Below are positions 1,186 to 22,968 of a stretch of DNA of 26,214 bases, piece by piece. This DNA is from an uncultured virus (IMG/VR IMGVR_UViG_3300032047_003368) (lineage: Duplodnaviria > Heunggongvirae > Uroviricota > Caudoviricetes). The notes below the pieces were generated by a model. The model ran no database searches and was not told where the DNA came from. It saw only the letters and a program-made list of their open reading frames with translations. Position numbers and translations under genes: made by a program. The stretch is taken from IMG/VR virus record IMGVR_UViG_3300032047_003368; one strand, 5' to 3'. Position 1 is the first letter of the stretch, and each line of letters begins with the position of its first letter.

Positions 1186-3711
1186 TTATTTCTTATTGGT
1201 TTTTGCAGGTTCTTGCTTTTCTTTGGGACTAGAATCAGTTGTAGAATCGAAATAAACTTCGTTGTCTTTTAATTTCGCAACAAGTAAGGTTTTAGTTGAG
1301 TTTTGTATTTCTTCATTGAGAATTGCTTCTGCTAAAGTATCTTCTAGATGTTTTTCAACTGCACGACGTAAAGGTCTTGCACCCATTTTATCATCATAAC
1401 CTTCTTCTAGCAAAAATTCTTTTACTTGCTTTGAGATACGGATTTTATACCCCTTTGCTTTTACTCGTTCTCGTAACTTTTCTATTTCCAACTCAACAAT
1501 TTCTGCAATATGTTCTTTTGTAAGTTTTCTGAAAATTACCATGTCATCAAGACGATTCAAAAATTCAGGTTTAAACATTTTTTTTGATTCTTCTATAATT
1601 TTTGCCTTGGTTGCTTCGTAGTCATGCTCTCCGTCACCGGCTGCGGATGCAAAACCAAGAGACGTATTACGTTGTAAAATTTCTGCACCTACGTTTGAAG
1701 TCATAATAATAATTGTATTCCTAAAATCAATTCTGCGTCCAACATTGTCAGTTAAATGTCCATCTTCAAGAATTTGCAACAAAAGTTGACAGATATCAGG
1801 ATGTGCTTTTTCAATTTCATCAAACAATACAACCGAATACGGATTTCTACGAACTGCTTCAGTTAATTGTCCCGCATCTTCGTATCCAACATATCCAGGA
1901 GGAGAACCAATCAAACGAGACACCGAGTGCTTTTCCATATATTCACTCATATCAATTTGTAGAATATTGTCTTCGTTTCCAAAGATGTCTTCAGCAAGAG
2001 ATTTTGCCAAATAAGTTTTACCCACACCCGTTGGGCCCAAAAACATAAACGAACCAATTGGTCGTTTTGGGTCTTTTAAATCAACACGACTTCTTCGCAA
2101 TGCTTTTGAAATTACTTTTCCGGCATAGTTTTGACCAATAACTTTTGCAGATAATCGTTTCTCAAGACCAAGTAGACGTTGTGCTTCAGTTTTTTCCATA
2201 CGACTGAGAGGAACTCCAGTCCAATCGGAAATGACTTTTAATACATCATCTTCACTTACTTTGATTCTATTTGTATTTCTGTTGTTTTTCCAACGGTCTA
2301 AAACTTTTTCTTGTCGTTCTTTAAGTTTTCGTTCAATATCTCTCCAATTTGCCGCCTTTTCAAAATCTTGCTTGGTAACTGATTCATCTTTATTATTAAC
2401 TGCTTCTGTTATTTTATTTTCTAACGAGTCAAGTTCTACAGGTTTTTTTAATGATTCAATTCTGACACGTGAACCAGTTTCGTCTAAAATATCAATTGCT
2501 TTATCGGGAAGAAATCGTCCCGTGATGTATCTGTCTGAAAATTTTACAGTACTTACAACTGCTTCGTCTGTGTAATCAATATTATGATGTTCTTCGTATT
2601 TGTGCTTGATACCACGAATAATTGTTATTGCGTCATCAACCGAAGGTGGATCAACTTGAACTTTTTGAAATCGTCTTTCTAGTGCATTATCCTTTTCAAT
2701 ATACTTACGATACTCTTCCATAGTGGTTGCACCTACACACTGAAGTTCACCACGACTAAGAGAGGGTTTAATGATATTTGAAGCATCCATAGAACCTTCA
2801 GCTGCACCCGCACCTACAATTGTATGAATTTCGTCAATAAACAATATAATGTTTTTTGCTTCTTGTACTTCTTTCATCACAGACTTGATGCGTTCTTCAA
2901 ATTGACCACGATATTTTGTTCCAGCAACCATCAAAGCAAGATCAAGCATATATACTTTTTTGTCTAAAATCATTTCAGGTACGGTTCCATTTGCAATTTC
3001 TTGAGCAAGGCCTTCAACAATTGCAGTTTTTCCAACACCTGCCTCACCAATCAAAATTGGATTGTTCTTGGTTCTTCTACATAAAATCTGAATTATTCTT
3101 GCAATTTCTTTTTTTCGTCCTACCACAGGATCAAGTTTACCTTCATTCGCAAGTTTAGTGAGTTCACGTCCAAACGATTTTAACGCAGGAGTTTTATGTG
3201 AACCGTTGCGAGTTTCAGTTCCACTGCCACCTGCCATTGCTTCTTCCAAATTGTCCGACTCAAAGTTTGGATCAATCTCCATAAGAATTTCTTTACGACA
3301 CGTTTCTATGTCAATATCAAGAGAATTTAGAATGCGAAATGCGATTCCTTCATTGTCTCTTAGTAGACCAAGTAACAAATGCTCTGTTCCTACATACGAA
3401 TGACTAAGTTCTTTTGCTTCTTTACCTGCAAGAGCAATTACTTTTTTTAGACGTGGAGTGTGGGTAATTTCTTTTTCTTTCTTTGTGTTGTTTTCTTTTT
3501 TATTCTTTTTTGCTTCTTTTTCAACTTCAGCACGTACGGTTGTAAAATCGACACCCATGCGAAGAAGGGCATTTACTGCAACCCCTTGACCGAGTGTGAT
3601 GATACCGACAAGCAAATGCTCTGTGCCGACATAAGATGATTCTAGTTCTACTGCAACTCGTTTTGAAAGTGCGAGTGCTTGTTGTGCTCTTGGTGTGAGG
3701 TCTCCCATCAT
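1186..3711 (-). CDS. clpC: ATP-dependent Clp protease ATP-binding subunit ClpC (Hsp100), 841 aa
   Basis: Two Clp-N repeats (YVGTEHLL x2). NBD1 has Walker A GEAGVGKT, Walker B ILFIDE and pore loop GTKYRG. UVR/M-domain QDFEKAANWRD. NBD2 has GPTGVGKT, VVLFDEIEKAH and GYVGY; ClpP-docking LGF loop; sensor GARPLRR. Confidence 0.96.
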   Translation of the reverse strand: MMGDLTPRAQQALALSKRVAVELESSYVGTEHLLVGIITLGQGVAVNALLRMGVDFTTVRAEVEKEAKKNKKENNTKKEKEITHTPRLKKVIALAGKEAKELSHSYVGTEHLLLGLLRDNEGIAFRILNSLDIDIETCRKEILMEIDPNFESDNLEEAMAGGSGTETRNGSHKTPALKSFGRELTKLANEGKLDPVVGRKKEIARIIQILCRRTKNNPILIGEAGVGKTAIVEGLAQEIANGTVPEMILDKKVYMLDLALMVAGTKYRGQFEERIKSVMKEVQEAKNIILFIDEIHTIVGAGAAEGSMDASNIIKPSLSRGELQCVGATTMEEYRKYIEKDNALERRFQKVQVDPPSVDDAITIIRGIKHKYEEHHNIDYTDEAVVSTVKFSDRYITGRFLPDKAIDILDETGSRVRIESLKKPVELDSLENKITEAVNNKDESVTKQDFEKAANWRDIERKLKERQEKVLDRWKNNRNTNRIKVSEDDVLKVISDWTGVPLSRMEKTEAQRLLGLEKRLSAKVIGQNYAGKVISKALRRSRVDLKDPKRPIGSFMFLGPTGVGKTYLAKSLAEDIFGNEDNILQIDMSEYMEKHSVSRLIGSPPGYVGYEDAGQLTEAVRRNPYSVVLFDEIEKAHPDICQLLLQILEDGHLTDNVGRRIDFRNTIIIMTSNVGAEILQRNTSLGFASAAGDGEHDYEATKAKIIEESKKMFKPEFLNRLDDMVIFRKLTKEHIAEIVELEIEKLRERVKAKGYKIRISKQVKEFLLEEGYDDKMGARPLRRAVEKHLEDTLAEAILNEEIQNSTKTLLVAKLKDNEVYFDSTTDSSPKEKQEPAKTNKK

Positions 3712-3715
3712 AACA

Positions 3716-3961
3716 TTATTTTTTCCATTTTGTAGGTTCTAAAGGACATTGGTAATCTTGCATCATAATATTAAATCCAGCACACCCACATTTGGTGCAT
3801 CTAAATATCTCTGGATTGTTTTCATATTTTTCATAAAAATTACACAATTTACATATATCTAATCTATCATTATATGTGGGTTTGTCAACTAATTTTATTT
3901 TAGAACTTCTAAGTTCCTTTATTTTTGTTTTATACGAATCAATGACTATATCCACATACAT
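3716..3961 (-). CDS. Small Cys-rich putative metal-binding protein (cassette gene C2; resembles DUF6171-type proteins as recalled)
   Basis: RLDICKLC...RCTKCGC...CPLEPTKW; paralog of 7500..7781. True start may be GTG at 3955. Confidence 0.75.
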   Translation of the reverse strand: MYVDIVIDSYKTKIKELRSSKIKLVDKPTYNDRLDICKLCNFYEKYENNPEIFRCTKCGCAGFNIMMQDYQCPLEPTKWKK

Positions 3962-3995
3962 AAATATACCAAAGTGCTTTAATTTTATCGGTGAA

Positions 3996-4442
3996 TTAAT
4001 AAATGGATGCAGTCAAATTATATATCGAATGCAATACTAGAGTCAGTACAAATGCAATTAAGAATCCATGCTTTCTTAAATAATGAACATAGCACCATGA
4101 CATAAAAAAACATGGAATGAAAATAAAAATAGGATACAATAAGTCATTAAAAATGTGTGCAACGGAAAACAGAAATGAAACCAAAAAAACTACATACATG
4201 GGTTTTATTTTGAGTTTTAAAAACAAAGCCGTTAGCAGTACATTAAACAATATAGTTTCCAATAAAGGTGCAGTAACTATCGCAAACATGGCATCAGAGG
4301 AATTGCGTAAAGTAGACCCCACATTAATTCCATACAAACTCCAATAAATAATTTTTAATGTAAGTGATGCCACGAAAAATGCACCAAGTACACATACATC
4401 CAATAAAGTAAAATTTTGTTTAGGTAATAGTAGTTCTCTCAT
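3996..4442 (-). CDS. CPBP/CAAX (Abi) family intramembrane glutamic/metalloprotease
   Basis: Very hydrophobic multi-TM protein with APLLETILF (motif 1 variant, EE->ET), FSVAH (FxxxH) and HSIYN (HxxxN). Confidence 0.8.
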   Translation of the reverse strand: MRELLLPKQNFTLLDVCVLGAFFVASLTLKIIYWSLYGINVGSTLRNSSDAMFAIVTAPLLETILFNVLLTALFLKLKIKPMYVVFLVSFLFSVAHIFNDLLYPIFIFIPCFFMSWCYVHYLRKHGFLIAFVLTLVLHSIYNLTASIY

Positions 4443-4451
4443 CTTGGTTAT

Positions 4452-4480
4452 ATACTACCAAGATTATTATAAAAAGTCAA
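4452..4480 (-). promoter_or_regulatory. sigma70-type promoter for the CPBP protease gene
   Basis: TTGACT (4480-4475), 17-nt spacer, TAGTAT (4457-4452), 9 nt before the ATG; no SD. Confidence 0.65.
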
Positions 4481-4495
4481 GTTAAAACTTATGAT

Positions 4496-5050
4496 TTACG
4501 AAGAAGATGACTTTTTTTTCTTTCTGTTTGCAGTTATTTTCCAATTTCCGTTCTCAGCAAGTTCAAAATATCTATATTTCATCATTTCACCATTTTTAAA
4601 TTCAACTAAACTCGTATATTCGGCTGTATCATGTGCCGCGGATGATTGATTTTGCACCAAAAGTTTTATATAGCAATCTTTGGAAGCAGGTTTATTTAAT
4701 GTGACTTTAACCTCAACGATTTTTTCCTGTTCACATGGTGCATCAGGAAATTCATCATCTTGAATTTTTACACTATCTTGAATTGAAATATCTAAGGTTT
4801 TAACACACACACCTTTGCAATATGAACACTCTTCTGGGAGTTCAAAATCTATTTTTTCTTCATCAATAAGTTTAACCTCACACTTGGGTGTACTGACTGA
4901 CACAGGACTAGGAAATTTTTGTGGAGTTGCTGTGGTTTTCAAACCATCAGGATTAGGACTATTTGCCGAATCTGCTCCTGAATTCACCTTATGTCTTGGA
5001 TTCTGTGGTGAACAACTCTCAAGTATTTGTTTTATATCATCTTCATTCAT
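4496..5050 (-). CDS. Hypothetical Cys-containing protein with C-terminal Ig/Calx-beta-like strands (cassette gene B2)
   Basis: SD AAAGGAG upstream. CSYC motif and VKVTLNKPASKDCYIKL; paralog of 7806..8372. Confidence 0.75.
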   Translation of the reverse strand: MNEDDIKQILESCSPQNPRHKVNSGADSANSPNPDGLKTTATPQKFPSPVSVSTPKCEVKLIDEEKIDFELPEECSYCKGVCVKTLDISIQDSVKIQDDEFPDAPCEQEKIVEVKVTLNKPASKDCYIKLLVQNQSSAAHDTAEYTSLVEFKNGEMMKYRYFELAENGNWKITANRKKKKSSSS

Positions 5051-5081
5051 TTTTATATTCTCCTTTGTAGTTTATACCACA

Positions 5082-7478
5082 TTAATTTCTATCTTTCCAC
5101 ACCGTTCCTCCTCCGGAGTTTAATGGATTTCGTATTTTGTTAGATAATCCTTTGCGATTCGCAAAGTTTATATAATTCCGCAACGGATTTTTCAGTGCAT
5201 CACGATCTGGCTCAGAATCCCATCCAATATCAATGTTTTGAATCCTCCTCAATCCTGCGATACAGGCTTGTTGTACTTTAAACATCATTGAATTTTCCCA
5301 TGCTTCTTTTTCCATCCTCGCAAGTTCACTTCTTGAAGCAGATGCAATTGAGTTTAATCTCTTCAAAGGAGATCCTAAGAATATCTCAAACATTGCAGGA
5401 TTTGCCCATTGTTTCATCATTTTGTCCTGTGCATCATCACTAAAAATTCTTCCCAATTTATGGTTTAACCATCTAATAGAAGTATCGTTTCCAATATATG
5501 CTTTTGTTTTCGTTTTATTCGCCCATGAGGACCCGGTTATATAATATGCGGTGGCACTTTCATTGAGCAAATCAACTTTATTTTGAGACTTTATCATTTG
5601 CTCAATACCACGTTGCCCCACAGGGCCACCCAGGCCTCCTAAATCAGTTGGTTGAATCTTTGGGTTTACTCTATCGTACTCGTTCCAATTTTTAGGGGTA
5701 CTGCCATGTACAACGATATCAATTGTTGGTCTTGAAATCATACCATTCGATCCAAATCCAAAATAATTAGTCATGAGTTTCTGCTTCGTAAAACCTAAGT
5801 TATTAGTGGTGACAAATTTAGCCTCCATTTGATGAATTTGACCACCTAAATACTTATATGGAGTATCCATTGCTTTTGATATGTTAATTATATTTTTTGC
5901 TCGTATGTGATTCTGAGCCTGGATCCAAGTTTTAATGGCTTCGTATAATCCAGGATTATTTTCTTTTTGGGCTGATAAGAATAGCCTACCAGTTTCAGAA
6001 GTAGGTTTTACCACACCTGTTAATATATTTTTTACTGCGTCTTCATCCGCCCCACCAAGACTTACATTAGTATTGTGAAAAGCATAAGAAGCCGTATACC
6101 ACGACTGATCTTCTTCTGATGGATTTGTTGAAATTACTATATCAGCGACATATCTAGGATGAACTGGCTTCGTATCCTGTACGTTGTGGACTTCACCCCC
6201 GTCATATTCAAACGGACGACGTGGAGGAGTATTATAGAAATTATTATCTGTTGGTTGTAGAGTAAGACGATTATAGCTTCCTCGATCACTCTCAATTGTT
6301 ACATCTATATCACGTTCTTTGCAATATGCTACTGCCATTTGCAATGCTCTATCAGTAGACTCACCAACTACATCTTTAAAAGGAATTTGGTTTGATAAAG
6401 CTATAGCATCTTGTTGGTTCAATCCACCTGTTATAAGTTTGAGATAATTATGCGTTCCAATCGCATCAACATATTCCTCGCAATATTTTTTTATTTTATT
6501 TACTCCGAGGACCGCACCTGTATACAAAAGTAAGTTCATTACTTTATTCTCGTATTTATACTTTGCAGCTGCTGATTCAGTTCTAACATCAAACAATGAC
6601 ATTACCCATTCGTTTGTAACTGGTGTTATTTTCATATCCTCTACTGGTGCGTAATATTTGACACGGCCATAGGGTGTATTTTTTCCAGTCAACGGGTCTA
6701 TTTTTCGAGGTTCACGTGGTACTTCAATTTGCAATACTTCTTTCTGAACAACAGTTCCACCGTATCCATCGGAAATTGTTTTTGTTCGTGTGACTCTTGG
6801 TTTGAAATCCGGATCGTGTTCAGCTGCCAATCTATAAACACGGTGTGATCCGTCCTCGGTATCCCAAAAAGTATATGGTACAGTTTTGTCAATAAAAAAT
6901 GGTGCTTTGTGACGATTCAGAGTACGATTAACTGATTCAAGATCATCAGCAGCTCCACGGTTTGAATTTTTGCGGTTTGTTATATCTGCATATACCATAT
7001 TTGTTGCACCTGCAACATTTCGTGCTCTATATTGAAGATTTTTTCCAAATTCATTTCTGATTGCATCTTTTGTATATCTAGCTTCAATTTCTTTTTCTCG
7101 GTGGTACAAGTTATCAACTGCACTTGTTAATCTAAATCCGTGTATTCCTGGTTTTTTTCCCCAGGGACCATCATACTCACCATCGGATAAGGGAGCTTCT
7201 TTGTTCGATACAATACTGTAACATTGACTGGAACACATACCACCCTTGCTTGCATCCCCAAGATCAATAGTACTTGATCCTAAAACAAAATGACCATTTG
7301 GAATCTGTTTATTTGTTAAACCGGCATCAAATAAAGTAAAACTGCTTTCAAAGAATCCGTTTGGGTCCATCCAGTCCACATTACTAAATACTGTCGTATG
7401 CCCACCTCCGATTTGCTGAACTTCCGATTTTCCATCTTTGAATTCGGTTACATCTACTTTATTATTTGATTCTTTCAT
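5082..7478 (-). CDS. Large hypothetical protein, 798 aa (cassette gene A2)
   Basis: Long ORF with SD GGAG upstream; shares several ordered motifs with 8398..10365. Confidence 0.85.
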   Translation of the reverse strand: MKESNNKVDVTEFKDGKSEVQQIGGGHTTVFSNVDWMDPNGFFESSFTLFDAGLTNKQIPNGHFVLGSSTIDLGDASKGGMCSSQCYSIVSNKEAPLSDGEYDGPWGKKPGIHGFRLTSAVDNLYHREKEIEARYTKDAIRNEFGKNLQYRARNVAGATNMVYADITNRKNSNRGAADDLESVNRTLNRHKAPFFIDKTVPYTFWDTEDGSHRVYRLAAEHDPDFKPRVTRTKTISDGYGGTVVQKEVLQIEVPREPRKIDPLTGKNTPYGRVKYYAPVEDMKITPVTNEWVMSLFDVRTESAAAKYKYENKVMNLLLYTGAVLGVNKIKKYCEEYVDAIGTHNYLKLITGGLNQQDAIALSNQIPFKDVVGESTDRALQMAVAYCKERDIDVTIESDRGSYNRLTLQPTDNNFYNTPPRRPFEYDGGEVHNVQDTKPVHPRYVADIVISTNPSEEDQSWYTASYAFHNTNVSLGGADEDAVKNILTGVVKPTSETGRLFLSAQKENNPGLYEAIKTWIQAQNHIRAKNIINISKAMDTPYKYLGGQIHQMEAKFVTTNNLGFTKQKLMTNYFGFGSNGMISRPTIDIVVHGSTPKNWNEYDRVNPKIQPTDLGGLGGPVGQRGIEQMIKSQNKVDLLNESATAYYITGSSWANKTKTKAYIGNDTSIRWLNHKLGRIFSDDAQDKMMKQWANPAMFEIFLGSPLKRLNSIASASRSELARMEKEAWENSMMFKVQQACIAGLRRIQNIDIGWDSEPDRDALKNPLRNYINFANRKGLSNKIRNPLNSGGGTVWKDRN

Positions 7479-7499
7479 TTTTCTATCATCTCCGTTGGT

Positions 7500-7781
7500 T
7501 TAAACTGTTTCACTCCATTTGGGTGGATTTAAAGGACATTTACTTGTTGCCAATAAAAGTTTAGCAGATGAACATCCACACTTTTTACATCTTGCTATTT
7601 TTGTTTTTGCGAATTCTTGCCACCAATTACATTCTCTGCAAGTTTTTAATCTAAACTCCCAATCTGCTTTGGTAACAACTGGCCTACCCGAAGTTTGCCA
7701 TTTTTTTAAAGAGCCAATGAAATTTCCTGCAACTGACTTTATATCAGTTGGTGTCAATTTTTTATCATCTTCATCTCTCAT
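7500..7781 (-). CDS. Small Cys-rich putative metal-binding protein (cassette gene C1; DUF6171-like as recalled)
   Basis: RLKTCREC...RCKKCGC...CPLNPPKW; TATTTAT motif 4 nt before the ATG. Confidence 0.8.
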   Translation of the reverse strand: MRDEDDKKLTPTDIKSVAGNFIGSLKKWQTSGRPVVTKADWEFRLKTCRECNWWQEFAKTKIARCKKCGCSSAKLLLATSKCPLNPPKWSETV

Positions 7782-7805
7782 TATAATAAATATTATATTT
7801 TATTT

Positions 7806-8372
7806 TTATAATCTAAAATATTCATCTCTTCCGGGTATTCGTCTTATAGTTTTTGCTCCAGATATATCCCCCGCACCAATCCAAATATAAAGACTCCCCG
7901 TGTCCCCTGACGAGCTTTCTACAGATACATCTACAAAACAACCGGTTTTATTTTCCTTTTTTAATGTAACCGATACAGTAGACTCTTGATATCCACAACT
8001 TGGACATCCAGGAACCAAAGAAACTGGATCACTTACATTGTCTACTTTAAGTAATTCTACTTTTTTATCTGTTTCCCTTGATCCCCACCCACACATTGTG
8101 CAGGATGGAAGTCTCACTTTAAAACCCGTGGAATTCCACATCACACCCGGATATGAACATGGGATAGTTGTTCCGGAACCTGCATTCCCAGGAATTGGTG
8201 GCATGGCCATCAAATCTACTTTTGGAGCCCAAAGAGCTTTATCTGGGGTGGCAAACTCTAAGTGGCCACTCGGTTCACCGTCACTATTGAGTGTTCCGTG
8301 GGGTGATTGTGTAGCAGAGTATTTACAGTCACTTGAAACTTTAGAAAAATTATTTTGTTCTTTATCGTCCAT
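7806..8372 (-). CDS. Hypothetical Cys-containing protein with Ig/Calx-beta-like C-terminus (cassette gene B1)
   Basis: CTMC and CPSC motifs; VSVTLKKENKTGCFVDV...IGAGDISG; paralog of 4496..5050. Confidence 0.75.
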   Translation of the reverse strand: MDDKEQNNFSKVSSDCKYSATQSPHGTLNSDGEPSGHLEFATPDKALWAPKVDLMAMPPIPGNAGSGTTIPCSYPGVMWNSTGFKVRLPSCTMCGWGSRETDKKVELLKVDNVSDPVSLVPGCPSCGYQESTVSVTLKKENKTGCFVDVSVESSSGDTGSLYIWIGAGDISGAKTIRRIPGRDEYFRL

Positions 8373-8397
8373 TATTTTGTTTTTTTTTGTCGGTTTA

Positions 8398-10365
8398 TTA
8401 GAGTGAGAGAAGATTTTTAAATTTGATCCATGCGTTCGTTACCGGTCGATCTTGTTTACCACCCGTATCACGACATAACCATATTAAACTTCCAACATAT
8501 TTTTTTGATTTTTTATTGAGTGGTAGAATAAGAGCATTTAAAAATCTAGTTACTAAGTTAGCAGGACTATTACGAAGTCTGGTTTGATCTTTACACGGAA
8601 TATACGAATCAGGATCGGGTCCGATTCTTAAAAGAGGACACGCACTGGCATTTGGTTTATCATTACCATACGTTGTAATATAGTTGTAATCTTCATCAAG
8701 TGAGCCTGGACTGGTTCGAAACGACACAGAACCATCAGAGCCAGAAGTGGAATCAAATCCATAAAATAAACTTGCATAGTTCCCGCACAACACAGGATTT
8801 AATTTTTGATTGTACAATTCCGTGTCTGCAAGTGAGTCATCAACTTGGTTTGGCCGTATCTGAAGCTCTACTACGTCCGGATCATTTTTACATTTCCGTG
8901 TTTTCCATTGCATCTGGACCTTCTCCCCTGAGTCGTGGTCAGGTGGCCAGTCTCCATACGCAGCCGGAAATGATTCATTCTCTGCACAAGTAGTTGGAAG
9001 TTTAATGCCCATCTTTCTGCGATTAAATTTAAAATGTATCCGATTGGTGAAGCTTCGCGTAGGGGCTCCACGCATCGGTGGGATACTCGTACCTTGCTTG
9101 TATAACAATTCGTTGGTAGCTACATATTCACGCATATAGTTGTATATAGACATATCATCAAAGTACTTGCTATTTTTAGTTTCACCGTATACTTCGTCCG
9201 ATTGTTGCTTATATGTAGGTTCTTCGTTATCAGGATAATGAGTAAGACCGAGTATTCCAACATATCTAGGCATAGATGGTTGTCTAATGTACCCACTTCC
9301 ATTATCAGATCTTCCATCTATTCTGAAATCTAAAACGGGTTGAGTGGCAGAGTGTTCCTTTAAAACAACCTCAACCAAACCATCATAAATCATTGGAAAT
9401 GTGTTTTCTATAATTTTGTCCTTATCACGGGCTGTCCATCCATTTTCAGTAGAGTAAACTACCCAGCCGCCCAAGTCTTGACGAAAAATTGATTCCCATT
9501 CAGCTAGACTGGTACGTGACAATCCTTTATACAAAACATGTGTCATAAACTTATCAGCAAATAGGTTAAATGCTCTTGCAAGTTTAATACGACCGACAAT
9601 TATAGAACCACGTAAACTTTCAGTTGCTTTTATGAATTTTATATCCGCAGGATAAATGTCTTCATCTGTATCGGGGTAACTAAATGCAACCACTTCATTT
9701 ACCGCAGGTAACCAAAATGGATCATGCCACCCATGAATTGTAAAATTAATTCGTTTTTCACTTCCGGTTAGATGTGATCCAGTTTTATATTTATAATATG
9801 GTACATCAGTAACCAAGCACATATCTTGATGAAGTGCCAATTCAAAAAATATAGAAGTCGTGGGAAATGTTTCAGGTTCGAAATCACCAGATGTATCAAT
9901 ATTCTCGGTGTATGTTCCCGAGAATGCTCCTGGTTTATTAGTACACTCACTCTTCCAATACTTTACAAGTTGACCTTCGTCGTATGTATGAAAATCTCCA
10001 TCAAAATATTTAAATGATTTATTTTCTTTATGAGCAATTAAATTCCATCCAGGAATTTTTGCAAGAGATACATTAGAATTTTCCTCGTTATCTATTTTCG
10101 ATGCTATGGTACTCGGTGTCGCATTCACTTCGGGTGACACCATATCAACGCATTGGGTAGAGTGTCCCAAAAAGTTTCCTTCGGCGTCGAACAAACTAGG
10201 AAACAATGTAAGTGGCTCACGGGAAGTACCAAGTAACATCCGAGGGCCCATAGACATACCAGACTCAGTTTCAATGGTTTCTACCCCATATAAACCAATT
10301 TCATCTAATAAATTAGGTTCAGAATAAAATTTTTTGAAATTTGTTTTAATTGTATCATCACTCAT
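8398..10365 (-). CDS. Large hypothetical protein, 655 aa (cassette gene A1)
   Basis: Long ORF; TATTTATA upstream at 10403-10410; paralog of 5082..7478. Confidence 0.85.
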   Translation of the reverse strand: MSDDTIKTNFKKFYSEPNLLDEIGLYGVETIETESGMSMGPRMLLGTSREPLTLFPSLFDAEGNFLGHSTQCVDMVSPEVNATPSTIASKIDNEENSNVSLAKIPGWNLIAHKENKSFKYFDGDFHTYDEGQLVKYWKSECTNKPGAFSGTYTENIDTSGDFEPETFPTTSIFFELALHQDMCLVTDVPYYKYKTGSHLTGSEKRINFTIHGWHDPFWLPAVNEVVAFSYPDTDEDIYPADIKFIKATESLRGSIIVGRIKLARAFNLFADKFMTHVLYKGLSRTSLAEWESIFRQDLGGWVVYSTENGWTARDKDKIIENTFPMIYDGLVEVVLKEHSATQPVLDFRIDGRSDNGSGYIRQPSMPRYVGILGLTHYPDNEEPTYKQQSDEVYGETKNSKYFDDMSIYNYMREYVATNELLYKQGTSIPPMRGAPTRSFTNRIHFKFNRRKMGIKLPTTCAENESFPAAYGDWPPDHDSGEKVQMQWKTRKCKNDPDVVELQIRPNQVDDSLADTELYNQKLNPVLCGNYASLFYGFDSTSGSDGSVSFRTSPGSLDEDYNYITTYGNDKPNASACPLLRIGPDPDSYIPCKDQTRLRNSPANLVTRFLNALILPLNKKSKKYVGSLIWLCRDTGGKQDRPVTNAWIKFKNLLSL

Positions 10366-10410: not shown

Positions 10411-10851
10411 TTAAAGTAAATGAGTTATCTTGATATTATTTATAATATTTTTATATTTTGCTGAGTGATATTTTTTAAACGAAATTCCATTACGAGATTG
10501 AAAATTTTCAATTCCCACTTTCATTGCAGGTTTTTGTTTTAGTTTTTTGCACAACAGAATACCTACATAATCTGCTTCTGCTTCTTGATCCTTATTAAAA
10601 CTCTTTGAATGCTTTAAATTTATATGAGCAACTTCATGTGACTCAATGAAAGTGATATGATGATTTGTTAAGTTATCACTTGCTACTTTATCGAGATCAA
10701 TAAACACCGACTTTTTCTCAGGAATTGCAAAACCTAGACCATGTGTTTCAAACTTATCTTTTAATGTTTCATATCCAGAAAATGTATTGTCTACCAAATA
10801 TACTTTGGTTTTTTTATCAAACTTACTTGTATATGAAATAAAATCACTCAT
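10411..10851 (-). CDS. Zincin HExxH metallopeptidase (ImmA/IrrE- or M48-like)
   Basis: SHEVAHINLKH followed by QEAEADYVG (ExxAD third-ligand motif). Confidence 0.75.
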   Translation of the reverse strand: MSDFISYTSKFDKKTKVYLVDNTFSGYETLKDKFETHGLGFAIPEKKSVFIDLDKVASDNLTNHHITFIESHEVAHINLKHSKSFNKDQEAEADYVGILLCKKLKQKPAMKVGIENFQSRNGISFKKYHSAKYKNIINNIKITHLL

Positions 10852-10969: not shown

Positions 10970-13900
10970 TCAAGTTTCTTCGGACAAAGGCTTTCCACAA
11001 AATTCAGAAAATACTAAATTGTTTTCTCCACCCATATATCCGTGATAATAACATTCATAACTCGTTGTACCGAAATCACCATTTACACACACCTCAATGT
11101 CACCATAGTAAAAATTAATTTTTTCTCCATTTAGTGCAGTTTTGCTTAATATTCCAAGTGAATTGCTTGTCATAGTTGGGTGATTTTTACAATAATAAAT
11201 AATAGTACCATCATAGTCATGTGGAATCTTCATAGTAATTTCAGATGTTTGTGAATCTAATTGAGTTCCATTCACCCAGTCTAAATCTATATCTCGTGAT
11301 TTTCCAATTTTAAAAGGATGCACTCCAGAGACTCCTGCGTTTTTAAATACATACATTTTCTTTTTCATGAATTTGAAATCACCACTGTATACATCAGATG
11401 AAATATCTGTTCCATCTTCCAGTTTGAATGTATAATGTGGAGATGACATTGATCCACCACTTACGTTTATTACAATGTCTCCGTGTGGTTTAATTTCTAT
11501 TAGTTTTTCTGACATAATTCCTACGTCATCCGAGTTTGTATGAATTCCAATTGGATGATCCACCGGTATATCAGTAAGTTGATACATATTCAGTCCTACA
11601 TTTAAAGGAGATTGAGTTTCCAGTATCCCAATGTCACCCTCATCTTCACCTTCCGTTGAATTAAACACATACTTTTTATCAACTATATTCACAGTTAACA
11701 TACCAGATACACAATCTACTTGAATTGGAGGTTCTGGTATCGAAATATCCATTACTTCAAAATCAGTAATTTTAATTCCCATCTCTTCATCTGCAATGCG
11801 TAGATCCTCATCGACATATATGTTATCTATAAATCCATATTCTGTACTGTAACTTATATCTAATTGCGCCACATTATTTTTGTAGTGATCCCATGCGTAA
11901 TCAAACATTTCAGTTAATGTCATATACTGATCCATCTCAGGTTTAACCATAAATCGTCTATCTACAAATCTTACATTTGTTATTTTACCACCCTCTACAT
12001 AAACCTTTACAGGTTTCCAAGAATTTGGAGGGCCATAGAAACTTCTTGATACAATATAAGAATAGTTATCAATCTGCGTATCTTCCCATAGTTTTTTGTT
12101 TTCTGCAAACAAATCTTCATCAAAATCTACAGGTTCGGGTTCTGGTGCAAACACATCCTTGGGGACATCAATTTTTTCATAAAAAATTCTACCGACTTGT
12201 TTTTCGGTTGAATCAATACCCCATACTTTAATTTTGTATATTCCAGATTGCAGTTCTATAAATAACGAAGTTTTGTTTTGAACAATTACTTCATCTTCAT
12301 TGTTTATTTTATATTTCCACGACGTCGTTCCTTCTAATAAATCAACTACAATTTCAACATTTTGTTCGGTGTGTGTCTCACTCACTTCTATTTTGTTCAA
12401 ATAAATTCCATTCATAATAGACGGTGGACACACTTCCCACTCACAATCATTGTGTGGGTCTCGGCCTACCATAAAACCACTTTCGCACATTTTTAAGTCT
12501 TTAGTACAAAATCTATCATCAATCACCGGTGGTTTTATTTCATCGGTGTCAGGACAAGCATGAAAGTTACAATTATTAAACGAATCTCTACCCACCGCAG
12601 TTCCGTCTGGACATATTTTTAATTCACGTGTACACGCTACAGGTTCATCTTCACCACCACCGTGTCGGTAATCTTCTGGACACATAAAAAACTTACAATC
12701 ATTTTGATGGTCTCTTGATACAACACTTCCATCCTTACAATACTTGACATCGGTAGTACACATCTTTAAATCATTGTCTCCTACAGGTGGTGGTAAAATT
12801 CCAACTTTATCACATGGATACCAATTACACTCATCAAATGGATTTCTACCAACTACATGACCGTTTTCGCATACCATAGCATCTTCTGTGCAGCTAGGGA
12901 CTTCACCATCGTCCACACAGGCCGGAAATTCACAATTATTTCGGGGGTCACGGGCAATAGAATGGCCGTCTTTGCACAATCTGACATCATCTGGACACAC
13001 CGGTGTGAACATTGTTCCCATTTGGTCATCTTCGACTTTTTCCAAATTGCACTCATCTATGATCTCAATTTTATGCTGACTTTTTCTATTTTTCCAATTA
13101 TTTTTAGTTAAAAACGCAACAATTTTTTTCGGTTTAAAGTTTTTTCTTAACTTTAGTTCACGCCCAACTAAAGTTCCTGTTGGGTGTAACCCACCCACAG
13201 ATATGTCTTCAAAATAGAAAGTTTGTTCTTTTCCAGTTGCCGACAAAACATTTATCACAATTTTGTCATTCTTATCTGCATTGAAAAAATCAATATCAGA
13301 AGTGATGGTATTGTTGTGAATACACACCGACTCATCTTTTACCATAATTTTCGGTAACTGGCACTCTCCCATATCAGTTAGTTCGGATTTTGCAATTTTA
13401 TCTTTCCAGCTACCTTTGGTTACGAGTGCAACTAAACGTGTGGGAATTTTTTTGTTATCTGGTATTTCAATGCGGATTGTTTTATTACCCACACCTGTTA
13501 AGTTTTTTACACTAAAGTTTTTAATTCTGTCTTTATCATTAAAGAGTATAAAAACAACATTCATGGTCTCAGGTAAGTCATATTCAAATCCCACTTCAAC
13601 TAAATCAGACGAAACACATACTTTTTCAGAGTGTAAATTAAGCATTTGGTATTGTTTCACACCAACTCGGTCAGAGTAAACTCTATTTTTAAAAGAATCC
13701 TTTGAAACGAAAACTGACATTTCATTTGGTATTTCTGAATTTTCATTCAAAATAAATTTATGGGTTATGTCACCTACTCCTGATATTTTCTTAAATCTTT
13801 TGGTTTTTATTATTTTTTTGTTTGCCAAAAGTCTGACTACTATGTCCAACTCTTCGGAAAGTTTGTGCTTAAAACTAACACGGGTAGAATTAGAATCGTT

Positions 13901-16900
13901 AGTTGACTTAATAGACTCAATGAAGTTACACTCAGTTATTTTAACTGAATGCCTTGCTACGGAATTACTCCATGTATTGGGGGTTAATATAGCCGTAAGT
14001 TTTATTGGTACATCGTTACCACCAATCTTATAGTTCTTCTGAAACGTATGTTGTCCTATTATGTTTTTATATGTGTATCGTTTTATAATACCAGTATTGG
14101 AATAAATAAAAACTTTTAAGTTCATTTCCTCAACTGCGTTACACTCTATTTCAAAATCTAGTTTGTTCTTACTTATACAAGTTTTTGTCTCATTTATATG
14201 CACCATATTATTATTTTCCATTATACAACTCTCTTTTATACCAATGATGTTTTCTCCTGAAATTATTTTTGTATCGCACACCGGTGCGTTTTTTATTTCA
14301 GAATCTACATTCACTAGTTTCATGTTATTAAAATTAAGATTTTTTGAAGCCGTTATTAAAACTCCGTTCGAGGATGCACCTCCGTAATGAGCAGGACTTT
14401 TTATGTCTGCATTTCCTACAAGTTCTAGATTACTACGAAACCTACCTTGTGTTTTTACCCCATCTATACATACATCAGTTATGGTGTGATTTACACCACC
14501 TGAAATAAACATTCCTATGTTTCCTTTCATAACATGACCCATGCTATCGTGATTTGGAATCAATCTCAAACCTTCATCACTCAATATAGAAGACAAATTC
14601 AAATTTCCCTCCGCCCACATTAACACACAAGACTCTATTTTTGATAAATCAGACGAAATTCCATATTGTTCATATTTTTCCAAAAATAACTGAGCATTTG
14701 CAAGTGAATTTCCCACATACTCACACCTACCTCTGTTCATTCTGGACGCAAACATAACATTAAATACATCACCAAAAGGACCAGTTTGTAGTTTTCCTTC
14801 TGCTGTTTCAACTGCCAATATTTCAACAGGATTGGATTTTATATTTTTTATAGTAATTTCGTGAAGTAGAATTGCTTCATTTCCAACAGATTCTGAGGTT
14901 CGTTCTGTAAGAAAGTCGTGTACTACAACACCAGCCACGTGTAAAACCAATCCATACATATTTCCGTCATATAGGCCAGTTTCGTTGTTAAAATAATTTT
15001 TAATAGGTTCGTTTTTTAGTACACTTTCACGAACTTCGTTTATATCACGAGAAATTTCACTTAAAATATCATCAAGTGTCAACTGTAAGTCACCCACATT
15101 AAGTGTTATATTCTCATGTAGGTCGGACGATTGTGTGAATGTGGTTTGAACTTTAGTTTTATTCGGTAAATTTGCTTTAGTGTGGCCGCAGGACGGCATA
15201 TTAAGCACATCACTTGATTGCAATCTACTTTTTATTTGTTCTAAATGCCTTTTTATAAAGACTGACTGGGAGAACATAGAGTTTACTGGTATCTTTAATT
15301 GTGTTCCCAGGATACTCACATTTGATATAACACCGGTGGTGGCTCCATTTAATGCAATTCCGGCAACTTCAAAGTTTTTAATTTCTAGGTTGCTCAACAC
15401 CACTCCCTCATTTAAGTTACCGTGTATTCCGTGATGGGACGATAGTCCAAGTTTTCCATTGAATATTAATACATTTTTTGCAGGTGAAAACGAATCTCCA
15501 AACGAATGGGGCCCTTGGGATGGTATGAACGGAGCATTGGCCAGCTCAATAATTGAGAAAAATCTTTGTTGTAAATTGTGCATCTTACTCTGTTCAATTG
15601 TATGACCATTCAAGTTTAGCATGACACCATCACATTCAACAGTAACAGCAGCGAAAAATCCAAGATGATATGCACCACCACGTCCCATTGGATATAAACC
15701 AGAAGCTATCTGTTCATGTGTAGGAAAAAAGTCGTTACCCTCGTTTGGATGGAACACCACATCTTCCATCAAGTGATAATAACCAGGTTTGGTAATTCTT
15801 AATGTACCCGTGTAGAAATCAGCCGCATATATAGAAATAACTTTTGTAATTGTAGGTTGAATATTATCTACAGTTTGGTATTCTTTAAACGAATATATGT
15901 GATTCTCTCTGTTATGTTTCTTAAAATAGTTTAAAAGTTGAGTTTGTGGTTCGTCGCAATTGTCATATAGTGTAGAATCAAACTTTATCACATACTCAGT
16001 CAGGGGTGAGTTGCGAACTCCCATAATATCAACTCCACGTAAAATTGAACTAACTTTTTTGGTAAAATTTGTCTTATAATAATATTTTTTGTGTTTAATT
16101 TGATCAAACGATAACTGAACCACTTCTTCGGTATCGTCTTCGTATAAAACCGAGAACTTTGGATCTAACCCCATATCGTATTCACTTAATATAAACTCAA
16201 TTGAAATATGTTCCGGTTGCAATCCAAGTTGCAACTCCCTCTCAGAACCAAACTCGTTAGAAAACCAAATCTTAGTTTTGATATATGGATTAAATGCAAG
16301 TCTGTTCGGTGTATTATCCACATTAAATAACTCAAAATACTCATCAGTTTTAATTGATTCTTTTAAAATTATTCTATTTCTAACAGATTTTTTTTGCCAC
16401 TTTATTATCCCGTCAGTTGACTCATGTGTGTTATCAAGAAAAGATAATTTAATATCAGACCTATAAACATCATCGGTAAACTGAGCTAATTCACCCAACT
16501 TAAATAAAATTTTGTTTCTTTGAATCTGAATTACATCATACCAAGTATCAAATCCCAACATAGCATTTCCGTCATCGAGACCAATTATCTGTATTTTTTT
16601 ATTTTTAAGTTGTGATTGAGTGAACTCGGTATCTTCAAATTCTGCCCACACTTCATCTGAATCTAATACGAACTTGAATGTTACCTTCGGTAGAGTAATT
16701 GTTTTCATTAAATTGGTAATAAGATTTTTTGAAGAGTTTTTTATTAACCAACTTTTCACGTCACCAACGGAAGCCGAGGGGTTTTCTTGTAAGTACAATG
16801 ACACCAGTCCGACCACAACTGGACACGAAAAACTTGTTCCATCCCTCCACCTATATTTTTCATATGTTGTTTTTTTCCAGTCGTATCTCGGAATTATCAT

Positions 16901-17980: not shown

Positions 17981-17984
17981 CTAT

Positions 17985-17991
17985 ATAAATA
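17985..17991 (-). promoter_or_regulatory. Recurrent phage upstream motif TATTTAT (putative late-type promoter); representative copy
   Basis: Same 7-mer at 45-51, 1169-1175, 3960-3966, 7786-7792, 10404-10410, 20168-20174, 20722-20728, 22419-22425 and 23493-23499, all just upstream of minus-strand starts. Confidence 0.6.
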
Positions 17992-18014: not shown

Positions 18015-18431
18015 TTACATTTTATTCAAACAATCAACTATTATACCAACACAGGTGTTTTCCAAAAAATTACAAAATTCTGATTTTATTTCATTACAAT
18101 CGGATAAAGTTTCGATGGAATTTATGTATTGATTATAGTCCACAGTATCAGAATTGCAATGTTTAAGTTCATTCAAATAATTAAGAATTGCATCAGTTCT
18201 ACAACAAGTTTCGTTTGAGTCACAATAATACTTTTCAATTTTATTTTTTAAATTAGTTTGAATTAAACATATCTGCTCTCGGTGTTCATCTGTAATTTGT
18301 AAAATTCCATTGACAGGTGGATATGGAGTAGACCGATTTGTATATTGATCAAACACTTTAGAAATTTCATCCAAAGCTGCATCAATGATTTCACTGCAAC
18401 AAAAATATTTCTTACCATTTAACTTGATCAT
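18015..18431 (-). CDS. Hypothetical Cys-rich helical protein (paralog of 18459..18863)
   Basis: ORF fills the gap; starts MIKLNGKKY. Confidence 0.75.
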   Translation of the reverse strand: MIKLNGKKYFCCSEIIDAALDEISKVFDQYTNRSTPYPPVNGILQITDEHREQICLIQTNLKNKIEKYYCDSNETCCRTDAILNYLNELKHCNSDTVDYNQYINSIETLSDCNEIKSEFCNFLENTCVGIIVDCLNKM

Positions 18432-18458: not shown

Positions 18459-18863
18459 TCAAAAGTCAAGTTTTCCACGAAATTTTTTAATATTTTTCAT
18501 AAAAACATACAAACAAGTATTAAACACATATTTTTTTGCAGCTTCTTCGTCAGAGCGGATTGTTACTCCATATGCACCCTGTGTAAAAATACTTACTTTT
18601 TCTTTTTTATTGTCGTATAAATTGTCGTTTGTCATTTGTAATACAAGATCTAATTTACAATATCGTTCCAACTTACAATATGCTCTGAACATATCCTGAA
18701 AGTCTGCTAACATCTTTGCACAATTTTCAGCTGTTTCTACTTTTATATCTTTTATAGATTCGGCTATAATACAATAACTTCCTTCCTCAAGCAAAATAAT
18801 TAAATCTTCAAGTTCATTTATTATTTCTTCTTGCGAAAGGTATATGTTACCATTCAGTTTCAT
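18459..18863 (-). CDS. Hypothetical protein (paralog of 18015..18431)
   Basis: Start moved to ATG 18863 (MKLNGNIY), 1 nt after the upstream stop and matching the paralog N-terminus. Confidence 0.75.
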   Translation of the reverse strand: MKLNGNIYLSQEEIINELEDLIILLEEGSYCIIAESIKDIKVETAENCAKMLADFQDMFRAYCKLERYCKLDLVLQMTNDNLYDNKKEKVSIFTQGAYGVTIRSDEEAAKKYVFNTCLYVFMKNIKKFRGKLDF

Positions 18864-18864
18864 C

Positions 18865-19434
18865 TTACCACACATTCTTGATGGTAGAACTAGTCCCCAC
18901 CCATGCTTTTATTTTTACATGTCCCCACTTACGTGGGTCTACATTTCCGTCATTTCCTAAACTCAAAATTGCCATCGTGCGATGCCACCCCTCCAATAAA
19001 CGATATTCACTTCCTTTATTTAACACTATTACGGGTTCGTTTGTTCCTGGTTTTAATTTTTTGGCAAGTTTTCTTTGATATTCAGTTCGCTCTTCGTCAT
19101 CAGGTACTTTATTCGGATTTTCATTTCCGAACTTTCGTTGAATCATTGTTTTTTGGTTTGCTTTTTTAAAATCAGATATAGTGAGAGATAGAACTTGCTT
19201 TTCCCACTTTATGTTTATCCAATCCTCAAACTCAAACGCAATATCATCTTCGTCTGCATATGGATCATTTTTGAGTATTCTCTCAAGTTCACTTGGAAAA
19301 AAACCATTGGGTGACATTATAAAATCTTTAAAAATATATTTTGGCATTTTTTTAGGTACGTCGAATATTTTCTTTAGCATTTTTTTAATTTTCTTTTCGG
19401 TTATTTCCGCGAGGATATCTGAAAGAAGAATCAT
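18865..19434 (-). CDS. ParB/Sulfiredoxin N-terminal-domain-like protein
   Basis: EPVIVLNKGSEYRLLEGWHRTMA matches the ParB/Srx P-hh-V...hhDGxHR motif. Start at ATG 19434 (MILLSDILAE), just after the Nudix stop. Confidence 0.65.
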   Translation of the reverse strand: MILLSDILAEITEKKIKKMLKKIFDVPKKMPKYIFKDFIMSPNGFFPSELERILKNDPYADEDDIAFEFEDWINIKWEKQVLSLTISDFKKANQKTMIQRKFGNENPNKVPDDEERTEYQRKLAKKLKPGTNEPVIVLNKGSEYRLLEGWHRTMAILSLGNDGNVDPRKWGHVKIKAWVGTSSTIKNVW

Positions 19435-22452: not shown

Positions 22453-22968
22453 TTAACTACACTTTCTATAAAACTTTTCTACGAACACTTCAATTGCATC
22501 AAGTGCGTCTTTTATTTCCCACGCAGGACCATCGTATCCGTTTTCAGGTAAATAATTTTTATCACCAATTTCAAGGCATTCAACACGATCAAGATACTCT
22601 GAATGTTTCTTTTGCATCCAAGGCATATGTTCGTCTTTGTTCATTAAAATGATTTTCTCACTACTTGCACAATCATAATTATCAAGCATTTGATTCGTTG
22701 CACCAATTAAACAAAATGGAATATTGCGATTTTTAATTCGTTCATAAGAAGGAATTGCTAAACGAATTGGAAATGTAAAAGATTCTCCGTGTTCATACTT
22801 TTCAGTTGGTTGAACACGCAATCCACGACTAAATGCACGAATGTGAGTTTTATTATTTTTAATACAAAGATAATTAAAGCACGCCTCGGCATACTTGCTT
22901 CTGTACAAATTACCTGTACATACAAAGCAGAATTGCTTTACCGGTACTCTTTCTTCAGCAGTTTCCAT
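22453..22968 (-). CDS. Low-molecular-weight protein-tyrosine phosphatase / ArsC-fold protein
   Basis: P-loop FVCTGNLYRSKYAEA (CX5R), AFSRG and IILMN; overlaps the upstream gene by 31 nt. Confidence 0.85.
   Translation of the reverse strand: METAEERVPVKQFCFVCTGNLYRSKYAEACFNYLCIKNNKTHIRAFSRGLRVQPTEKYEHGESFTFPIRLAIPSYERIKNRNIPFCLIGATNQMLDNYDCASSEKIILMNKDEHMPWMQKKHSEYLDRVECLEIGDKNYLPENGYDGPAWEIKDALDAIEVFVEKFYRKCS

Follow-up and report, generated by a model that had tools for sequence, protein, structure and literature searches.

The stretch of DNA analysed here, 26,214 nucleotides of the uncultured virus record IMGVR_UViG_3300032047_003368 (hereafter the window, to whose full length all coordinates refer unless another contig is named), appears to come from the genome of a large tailed phage and carries, one behind the other, two copies of a three-gene cassette that we call A-B-C. 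The minus strand carries all long open reading frames (ORFs) of the window, including every gene of the two cassettes. Copy 1 consists of A1 (8398-10365), which encodes a large soluble protein of 655 residues belonging to a new family, B1 (7806-8372), whose cysteine-rich product of 188 residues has a hydrophilic N-terminus and seven cysteines, five of them invariant in its family, and C1 (7500-7781), encoding a zinc-ribbon-like protein of 93 residues with the pattern CxxC..CxxCGC..CP..W, a member of phrog_13558 with a weak likeness to DUF6171. Copy 2 consists of A2 (5082-7478; 798 residues), a paralog of A1 that has the N-terminal ~370 residues in common with it, B2 (4496-5050; 184 residues), a probable paralog of B1, a further gene that we call X (3996-4442; 148 residues) and C2 (3716-3961; 81 residues), a paralog of C1. 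X, present in copy 2 only, encodes a multi-pass membrane protein resembling the Rce1/CPBP-like glutamic intramembrane proteases, and a conserved stretch of 50 nucleotides between B2 and X (4434-4483, minus strand), picked up by blastn and a promoter scan, holds a putative promoter. The intergenic gaps across the cassette genes measure 21-53 nucleotides, the C2 stop codon lies 4 nucleotides ahead of the start of a Clp ATPase gene, and no third copy of A, B or C is present in the window. The region is almost certainly an ancient tandem duplication of a lineage-specific A-B-C cassette in an uncultured marine phage, of which both copies have been kept.

The two copies had first been noticed in an inspection made from the letters without database searches, to which we refer as the sequence-only reading. 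The six ORFs of A, B and C were found on the minus strand at exactly the coordinates given there, and all the peptide motifs that it quoted are present, as is an 11-nucleotide identity between 9260-9270 and 6148-6158. The two copies had also been described as colinear, which is true of the order A-B-C but not in the strict sense, since X separates B2 and C2.

The duplication is plainest in the C genes, whose paralogy had been proposed from shared cysteine motifs. C1 and C2 align with a BLASTP E value of 2e-16 (30 % identity over 77 residues), their local alignment score is reached by none of 500 shuffles (z 22), and both fall within phrog_13558, which C1 matches with E 9.9e-9 (residues 30-89) and C2 with E 1.7e-7 (residues 15-79), at profile positions ~10-68 of 69. 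A search with the C1+C2 pair returned 38 proteins, comprising a C1-type group, longer forms and a C2-type group. Nine positions (C48, C51, C65, C68, G69, C70, C82, P83 and W89) are invariant in all 21 aligned sequences of the family, and each of the 21 carries the two conserved CxxC knuckles of a zinc ribbon. By this pattern C is a zinc-ribbon-like protein that is predicted to bind metal. Its relation to DUF6171 is one of resemblance and not of membership: 7 of the 21 family members match that domain at E <= 1 (best 3e-4), none reaches its gathering cut-off of 27 bits, C2 scores 13.9 bits (E 0.074) and C1 does not match. Neither phrog_13558 nor DUF6171 has an assigned function, and a literature search made by the DUF6171 family name only, and not for the A-B-C layout, found nothing. 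Among PDB sequences the sole hint for C, a 12-residue CxxCGC match to AcrVIA2, is not significant (E 0.045). Through the cassette, the uncharacterised zinc-ribbon proteins of phrog_13558 acquire a definite genetic setting that is seen repeatedly.

A scan of Joint Genome Institute (JGI) metagenomes with a C2-type alignment retrieved three loci. L031 proved to be a false relative, a Cas12f1-like TNB-domain protein, and L029 is a short contig whose Clp protein shares 99 % amino-acid identity with that of the window. L030 (5441 nucleotides) holds, in this order, the C-terminal 185 residues of an A1 counterpart (A1'), B1' (160 residues), C1' (94), A2' (628), B2' (172), X' (148), C2' (80) and the start of Clp.

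The homology of the A proteins was recovered through relatives. Compared with each other alone, A1 and A2 give a best BLASTP E of 1.1 and, with thin profiles, an hhalign E of 0.3; in pairwise shuffles the local score has a z of -0.7, and the global score (z 3.2) is reached by 1 of 200. A word-index search of 5.8 billion proteins returned one close relative for each, P0002 for A1 (94 %) and P0001 for A2 (78 %). The A2' protein of L030 has motifs common to A1 and A2, namely [VI]PY..(~20 residues)..DP[FY][FYW].P, K.M..LY.G and P..PRY. With only A2' added, hhalign gave an E of 0.063, and 22 of 2000 shuffles attained the score of the A2-family profile on A1, as did 687 of 2000 for the A1-family profile on A2. 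A five-sequence A profile run against 1.84 billion cluster representatives then matched 13 proteins at E <= 1e-3 (8 of them at <= 1e-10 and 4 at <= 1e-30): P0002, the fragments P0047 and P0048, which are 94-100 % identical to the ends of A2, and ten new relatives, half of them full-length. One of these, P0043, matches A1 (E 5.7e-10, A1 residues 104-379), A2 (E 4.3e-12, A2 residues 66-406) and A2' (E 7e-57) in the same region. When an A1-clade profile (A1, P0002, P0044 and P0045) was compared with an A2-side profile (A2, P0001, A2', P0042, P0043 and P0041), hhalign returned a probability of 98.4 % and an E of 6.4e-15 over 317 columns (A1 14-369, A2 31-406), as against an E of 0.84 for the reversed-alignment control. 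The profile used in the library search mixed A1 and A2, which makes circularity a possible concern; the cross-paralog matches of the intermediates are not a product of selection, since each of them is strongly homologous to A2' or to A1 itself. One diverged syntenic contig and ten library relatives thus shifted the A1/A2 comparison from an E of ~1 to 6e-15, a clean example of the recovery of a homology that pairwise comparison misses.

What had been claimed for A1 and A2 from their shared motifs therefore holds for the N-terminal ~370 residues after relatives are added, but neither for the pairwise comparison alone nor for the C-terminal halves, which have no demonstrable similarity. Among the motif pairings proposed, LG(T/S)S, S(T/S)QC..VS, I.G..L and PRYV are paired in the family alignment, whereas DEIG/QQIG and LFDA/LFDA are not. 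Throughout the family a conserved N-terminal domain is followed by a C-terminal half that differs completely between relatives; A1 and P0044, for example, are 30 % identical over residues 1-413 and have no similarity beyond. The invariant columns are mostly Gly, Pro, aromatic (Y, W) and Asp, and neither the candidate histidine of 'HDP' nor the tyrosine of 'PRY' is invariant, so that the pattern looks structural rather than catalytic. A1 and A2 match no Pfam family at E <= 10 and no PHROG family at E <= 0.01, and no family is shared among 15 A-family members at E <= 1.

B1 and B2, taken alone, give a BLASTP E of 0.031, and their pairwise scores are reached by 1 of 500 shuffles in global alignment (z 3.3) and by 15 of 500 in local alignment (z 2.1). 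Once the L030 orthologs are included, the profile-sequence scores between the B1 pair and the B2 pair are reached by 1, 0, 0 and 0 of 2000 shuffles. Each of the four B proteins (B1, B2, B1' and B2') has seven cysteines, and their alignment contains 5 invariant cysteine columns and 11 invariant columns; shuffling the columns of the B2/B2' alignment, a procedure that preserves the homology between these two, produced five cysteine columns in 1 of 300 trials and 11 invariant columns in 2 of 300. The hhalign comparison of B1 with B2 (E 0.0089 over 115 columns) is not decisive alone, and we do not lean on it because an unrelated control, the A clade against C, reached 0.0065 over 13 columns. The five aligned invariant cysteines and the profile scores, reached by 0-1 of 2000 shuffles, agree with the earlier suggestion that B1 and B2 are paralogs, and we hold their homology to be highly likely. 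Like that of C, the cysteine pattern of B is of the metal-binding type. The description of B as Ig-like found no support, the B1 model (mean predicted local distance difference test, pLDDT, 32.3) being too poor for a fold search. B2 matches phrog_14799 weakly (E 0.0014), a match common to no other B protein. Relatives of B were absent from the family libraries, the PDB sequences and the loci fetched, large protein collections not having been searched with B. A prediction of the B1+C1 complex scored 0.00, which gives no verdict either way.

The age of the duplication can be read from the way in which these sequences group. The closest match of B1 is B1' (E 1e-7) and that of B2 is B2' (E 1.6e-7), as compared with 0.79 for B1/B2 in the same search, and C1-type and C2-type sequences form distinct clades. 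In a maximum-likelihood tree of 12 A sequences, which leaves out the fragments P0041, P0046, P0047, P0048 and P0050 and the A1' piece of L030, the A1-type clade has a support of 100/99 and the branches measure 0.6-2 changes per site. Because orthologs pair across L030 and the clades are distinct, the duplication must be older than the separation of these phages, which have kept both copies. The old and diverged duplication of a three-component module that the sequence-only reading had postulated is thus borne out, by the order kept in L030 as well as by the A-clade alignment. On a Tara contig, gene602398 is C1-like and gene602402 C2-like, with three genes between them, as for A2-B2-X. Contigs of the same size also link A1-type with A2-type proteins (45,132 and 23,016 nucleotides) and A with C proteins (27,907, 224,535 and 246,276 nucleotides), which is suggestive only, and C relatives occur on marine contigs of up to 246 kb. 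The stretch itself is widespread in marine metagenomes: part of it is present in 20 of the 22 runs listed and at least half of it in 11, and 3 of the runs may be its source. Two metatranscriptome libraries contain contigs with exact pieces of A1, B1, A2 and B2, although carry-over of DNA is possible and this is not proof of transcription.

Comparison with the relative contigs also reveals a striking unevenness of rates. Between the window and L030, amino-acid identity amounts to 93 % for Clp, 75 % for C1, 60 % for C2, 29 % for both X and B2, and 27 % for B1; A2 and A2' barely detect each other (E 0.009), and no similarity to A1 can be detected in the C-terminal piece of A1', which nevertheless shares 55 % identity with the C-terminus of P0044. 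At the DNA level, L029 is 94.4 % identical to the window over 3068-3895 and unalignable after that, whereas L030 is 84.4 % identical over 2915-3896, beyond which only C1 (72 %, 7515-7820) and the stretch 4434-4483 (90 %) align. In both contigs DNA similarity ends at 3895/3896, inside C2 at approximately codon 22, which coincides with the start of the conserved zinc-ribbon part. The pace at which the A-B(-X) segments diverge or are replaced far exceeds that of the flanking Clp gene, an observation that leaves very little room for doubt, and the process is one of replacement or recombination and not of gradual divergence, because Clp DNA that is 94 % identical stands beside a gene whose product is 28 % identical. 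Together, A and B make up a hypervariable island, the variable segments of which are bordered by the conserved C genes. That a cassette changes so much faster than its neighbours suggests a role in dealing with the host.

Gene X has been gained by copy 2. Its product scores 27.3 bits against PF02517 (Rce1/CPBP-like), for which the gathering cut-off is 22.4, and contains several hydrophobic 19-residue segments. It thus shares with the CPBP/Rce1-like proteases a match at the Pfam level and a multi-pass topology, but it is short, with 148 residues, and falls far under the cut-offs of the NCBIfam CPBP equivalogs (22.3 vs 130 and 19.4 vs 75). The gene is kept between B2' and C2' in L030, where X' has the same length and 29 % identity. 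The stretch at 4434-4483 (minus strand) matches L030 3875-3924 in blastn amid DNA that is otherwise unalignable, and contains, directly upstream of X, the sigma-70-like arrangement TTGACT-17-TAGTAT, with a TG before the -10 hexamer. It is probably, to judge by this arrangement, a conserved host-type promoter; promoter-like sites as such are not enriched in the region (31 found vs 31.9 expected).

On its downstream side the duplicated region is bounded by the conserved gene for a ClpB/ClpC-like double AAA+ ATPase (1186-3711, minus strand; 841 residues), followed by a 5'-nucleotidase gene. Directly upstream of A1 lies a gene for an HExxH protein of 146 residues (10411-10851, minus strand), which matches phrog_87 (E 0.0017) and resembles, at a sub-threshold level, the zinc-protease region of Lit, a phage-exclusion protein (PADLOC E 7.9e-5; NCBIfam 2.9e-4, 20 bits vs a cut-off of 274). 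This gene may be co-transcribed with the cassette, its membership of which is uncertain. The upstream flank continues with a subtilase protein of 2336 residues (10970-17980, minus strand), in which an S8 subtilase domain (137-418) and DUF6174 (1959-2075) are followed by a C-terminal 69-residue match to phrog_677, a baseplate wedge / tail fibre connector family (E 1e-8). Its subtilase part is 30 % identical to a hypothetical protein of 1827 residues from the Prochlorococcus phage P-HM2, which is encoded just before the gp13 neck gene, in the structural region of that phage. Further upstream are genes for a NUDIX protein, an inorganic pyrophosphatase, two nucleoside deoxyribosyltransferase-like proteins, a deoxynucleoside monophosphate (dNMP) kinase and a T4-type clamp-loader subunit. 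The window contains no tRNA genes and no Rfam families.

Some observations concern the window outside the cassettes. The two nucleoside 2-deoxyribosyltransferase-like genes (22938-23486 and 23537-24070, minus strand) constitute a second tandem duplication, with 45 % identity and a BLASTP E of 2e-57, and their Pfam scores lie near or under the cut-off. Two adjacent ORFs of 138 residues each (18015-18431 and 18459-18875, minus strand) have a weak N-terminal likeness (BLASTP E 0.042) and may be the product of an old duplication. Moreover, the motif TATAAATA, which we take to be the T4-type late promoter motif, occurs 10 times in the whole window vs 3.15 expected, a number reached by 0 of 100 shuffles. 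Seven of these copies are on the plus strand, opposite all genes, two of these seven at 17966-17991 near the start of the 2336-residue gene, and just one minus-strand copy stands upstream of any cassette gene, 72 nucleotides before A1; we draw no conclusion from this distribution.

The C family extends well outside this phage lineage. A scan of IMG/VR with the C family yielded 28 loci, each with one C relative, and BLASTP (E <= 1e-3) detects in none of them any protein related to A, B, X, Clp or the subtilase protein. Profiles of A and B run against all ORFs of these loci gave best E values of 0.86 and 0.1, respectively, and hhalign comparisons of the two with 14 aligned groups of neighbouring proteins stayed at E >= 0.1 throughout. 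The adjacency of A, B and C in other genomes, on which the sequence-only reading had made its proposal depend, is kept in L030 but lacking in IMG/VR, where C stands without A or B in 28 of 28 loci. For this reason C is best regarded as a wider family that this lineage has recruited and not as an obligatory partner of A and B. The pair of a C1-type and a C2-type gene, in contrast to the single C of the IMG/VR loci, has been seen only in this phage lineage, and the A-B-C triad is, as far as seen within the collections searched, specific to it. Starting from Clp, none of 80 IMG/VR Clp loci has a relative of A, B or C (profiles, E <= 0.1), and the closest IMG/VR relative of the Clp protein of this phage is 57 % identical.

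Certain of these C loci have a context worth recording. In L028, a distant C relative of 85 residues lies between two pieces of a nozzle gene, with internal-virion-protein genes after them, and in L022 and L023 C is found among large unannotated ORFs sized like the internal-virion-protein genes of L028, without any BLASTP similarity between the ORFs of L023 and L028. The split gene of the podovirus-like L028 (6936-10717) is a T7-type nozzle gene (PF25675), represented by an ORF of 994 residues (profile positions 1-623 plus ~330 extra residues) and another of 159 residues (profile positions 652-794). L018 (3678-11551), on a 107-kb IMG/VR contig, carries a C1-like protein (55 % identity) with thiolase, 3-hydroxyacyl-CoA dehydrogenase, acyl-CoA dehydrogenase and DUF1501 neighbours, beta-oxidation genes among them, and looks cellular or bacterial rather than viral. 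A scan of GTDB genomes with the C family gave one locus, L032 (4419-6023 of a 6.6-kb contig in a Planctomycetaceae metagenome-assembled genome), in which a C-/DUF6171-like domain is part of a 534-residue ORF with a phosphoribosyltransferase domain, followed by a methyltransferase gene.

A and B are two newly defined protein families. Apart from the weak match of B2 to phrog_14799, neither has a counterpart in Pfam (to E 10), PHROGs, NCBIfam, PADLOC or the PDB; PDB sequence profiles gave no match at E <= 10, and PADLOC recognised no family in A1, A2, B1, B2, C1, C2, X or four A relatives. A, B and C are devoid of transmembrane or signal-like segments. Nucleotides 3716-10365 searched with blastn, and A2 and C1 searched with tblastn, had no match in 50,697 phage records, and a scan of IMG/VR with A2 returned nothing. 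Pattern scans of IMG/VR gave 95 pattern matches for the C1+C2 pair and 92 for the A2'-type alignment, of which none was confirmed in either case. The statement in the sequence-only reading that no described system has the A-B-C layout is consistent with these null Pfam, PHROG, NCBIfam, PADLOC and PDB searches of A and B.

As to function, we tentatively favour the possibility that each cassette is a virion-associated module for interaction with the host, the two being alternatives and exchangeable. In that case A would belong to the virion as a fibre, an adhesin or an ejected protein, anchored via its conserved N-terminal domain, and its specificity would reside in the variable C-terminal half. 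B and C might act as metal-binding accessory or assembly factors, and the conserved C genes could double as homology arms for the swapping of modules between related phages. We favour this reading because the layout and the rate pattern are those of specificity determinants, and because the 2336-residue gene two positions upstream has a baseplate/fibre-connector segment and a P-HM2 homolog beside gp13. Distant C relatives close to structural genes, as in L028, also speak for it. In marine phages, host-recognition genes are among those reported from under-recruiting islands of this type (PMC3909814), which is a further reason for it; the same paper also describes islands in genes unrelated to recognition, so that island status does not fix function. 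The sequence-only reading had put forward, as possibilities, alternative virion appendages or receptor-binding units with a Zn- or Fe-S-binding chaperone, or an effector/partner system. A more specific version, which we consider speculative and rather unlikely, is that A-B-C is a previously undescribed exchangeable host-specificity module of large marine phages, in which the variable half of A, a virion protein of new fold, would be matured or capped by the five-Cys metalloprotein B together with the zinc-ribbon protein C, the C genes serving as recombination anchors and the two units covering two host types.

A number of results weigh against a virion-associated role. Neither A nor B matches any tail, fibre or virion family in Pfam, PHROGs or family-wide scans. 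An AlphaFold model of A1 built on a 15-sequence alignment has a mean pLDDT of 40.7, with only residues ~130-300 reaching 60-88; this part has a mixed alpha/beta portion that leads into a long helical hairpin, fibre-like repeats are not seen, and a fold search against BFVD, the PDB and 48,161 representative chains gave noise-level matches only (best Z 7.6, Foldseek E >= 0.002). Elsewhere the window consists of nucleotide metabolism, replication and chaperone genes with no structural module, the 69-residue phrog_677 match upstream being what tail-gene context A-B-C has among otherwise non-structural neighbours. In 21 of the 28 IMG/VR C loci, all of one lineage, C occupies a divergent junction, with a PhoH-like gene on one side and glycosyltransferase genes on the other, and not a place among tail genes. 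The sigma-70-like promoter ahead of X-C2-Clp fits early expression by the host RNA polymerase better than late expression of structural genes, and the C2 breakpoint could reflect constraint rather than a recombination hot spot. With regard to the models, a likeness of A1 to a PhiM1 ejectosome chain (Z 6.5) was not counted, as the match spans only the long helical hairpin, and the ESM Atlas models (pLDDT 0.24 and 0.30) gave no usable feature match.

The alternative that survives best, although we consider it somewhat unlikely, is that the cassettes are non-structural and serve host takeover or anti-defence; the products of A, B and C would be intracellular, would bind or inhibit variable host targets and would diversify through an arms race in an accessory-gene island. 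It explains the same pattern of divergence, and it fits the neighbourhood better, as the genes around (Clp, 5'-nucleotidase, NUDIX and pyrophosphatase) are non-structural. The conserved sigma-70-like promoter ahead of X-C2-Clp, and the solubility of A, B and C, which lack signal peptides and transmembrane segments, also speak for it, and small zinc-ribbon proteins are common among phage inhibitors, to which the non-significant AcrVIA2 match of C may be added. However, neither PADLOC nor any other search provided a positive functional match for A, B or C, proteins of 650-800 residues are large for inhibitors, and the layout with a conserved N-terminal and a swapped C-terminal part, together with a putative fibre/baseplate gene close upstream, fits virion proteins at least equally well.

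The proximity of Clp raises the question of a Clp-linked proteostasis or processing module that includes the S8, HExxH and CPBP proteases, in which C might serve as zinc-finger adaptor and A and B as clients or specificity factors. A distance of 4 nucleotides separates the C2 stop from the Clp start, three protease-type genes and the Clp ATPase surround the cassettes, and in Firmicutes the gene of a zinc-finger protein, mcsA, precedes clpC. Nonetheless, this proposal is improbable, as none of 80 IMG/VR Clp loci has A, B or C, none of 28 C loci has a Clp relative, and hypervariable adaptors are not expected beside an ATPase that is 93-99 % conserved. A polymorphic-toxin- or bacteriocin-like system, with A carrying a variable C-terminal effector, B as its partner or immunity protein and X as a CPBP-type immunity protease, would account for the conserved N-terminus and replaced C-terminus of A, for the small, adjacent and co-varying B, and for the PF02517 match of X; CPBP/Abi proteins are annotated as bacteriocin self-immunity proteins, and tandem repetition of cassettes is typical of polymorphic toxin loci. 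We find it very improbable, given that no known domain for toxicity, secretion or immunity was recognised in the A and B proteins with Pfam, NCBIfam or PADLOC, that there is neither a signal peptide nor a secretion-system context, that the genome is that of a phage and that X is present in just one of the two copies. Finally, it is hardly credible that only C was duplicated and that the likeness of the A and B genes is chance or convergence between unrelated orphans: the non-significant A1/A2 pairwise comparison, the A1-family profile on A2 (687 of 2000 shuffles) and a B hhalign E (0.0089) no better than that of the unrelated control (0.0065) would suit it, but for A it is largely refuted by the comparison of the clades (E 6.4e-15 over 317 columns, reversed control 0.84) and by P0043, which bridges A1, A2 and A2', and for B the shuffle tests (0-1 of 2000 and 1-2 of 300) oppose it.

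If the cassettes are host-range modules, as we tentatively favour, they would mark the place where specificity is determined in a marine phage lineage that is abundant and uncultured, and would offer a natural system for module swapping bounded by small conserved genes; an anti-defence role would instead make them candidates for new inhibitor families. Metaviromic islands (Mizuno, Ghai and Rodriguez-Valera 2014, PMC3909814) likewise consist of sharp differences between near-identical relatives, which are judged here from contigs and not from read recruitment. Fast-evolving duplicated accessory cassettes are already known in phages, whereas the A and B families and the A-B-C layout are undescribed in the libraries searched. 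Receptor-binding or tail-fibre loci of phages, such as T4 gp37/gp38/gp57A, can likewise comprise duplicated, exchangeable modules along with genes for accessory proteins or chaperones. The cassettes differ from such tail-fibre loci in having no sequence or fold similarity to fibre, adhesin or chaperone families and mostly non-structural neighbours, but would resemble them, by analogy, in the conserved N-terminal and replaceable C-terminal part of A, in the small accessory genes that come after it, in the tandem paralogous sets and in the extreme divergence next to conserved flanks.

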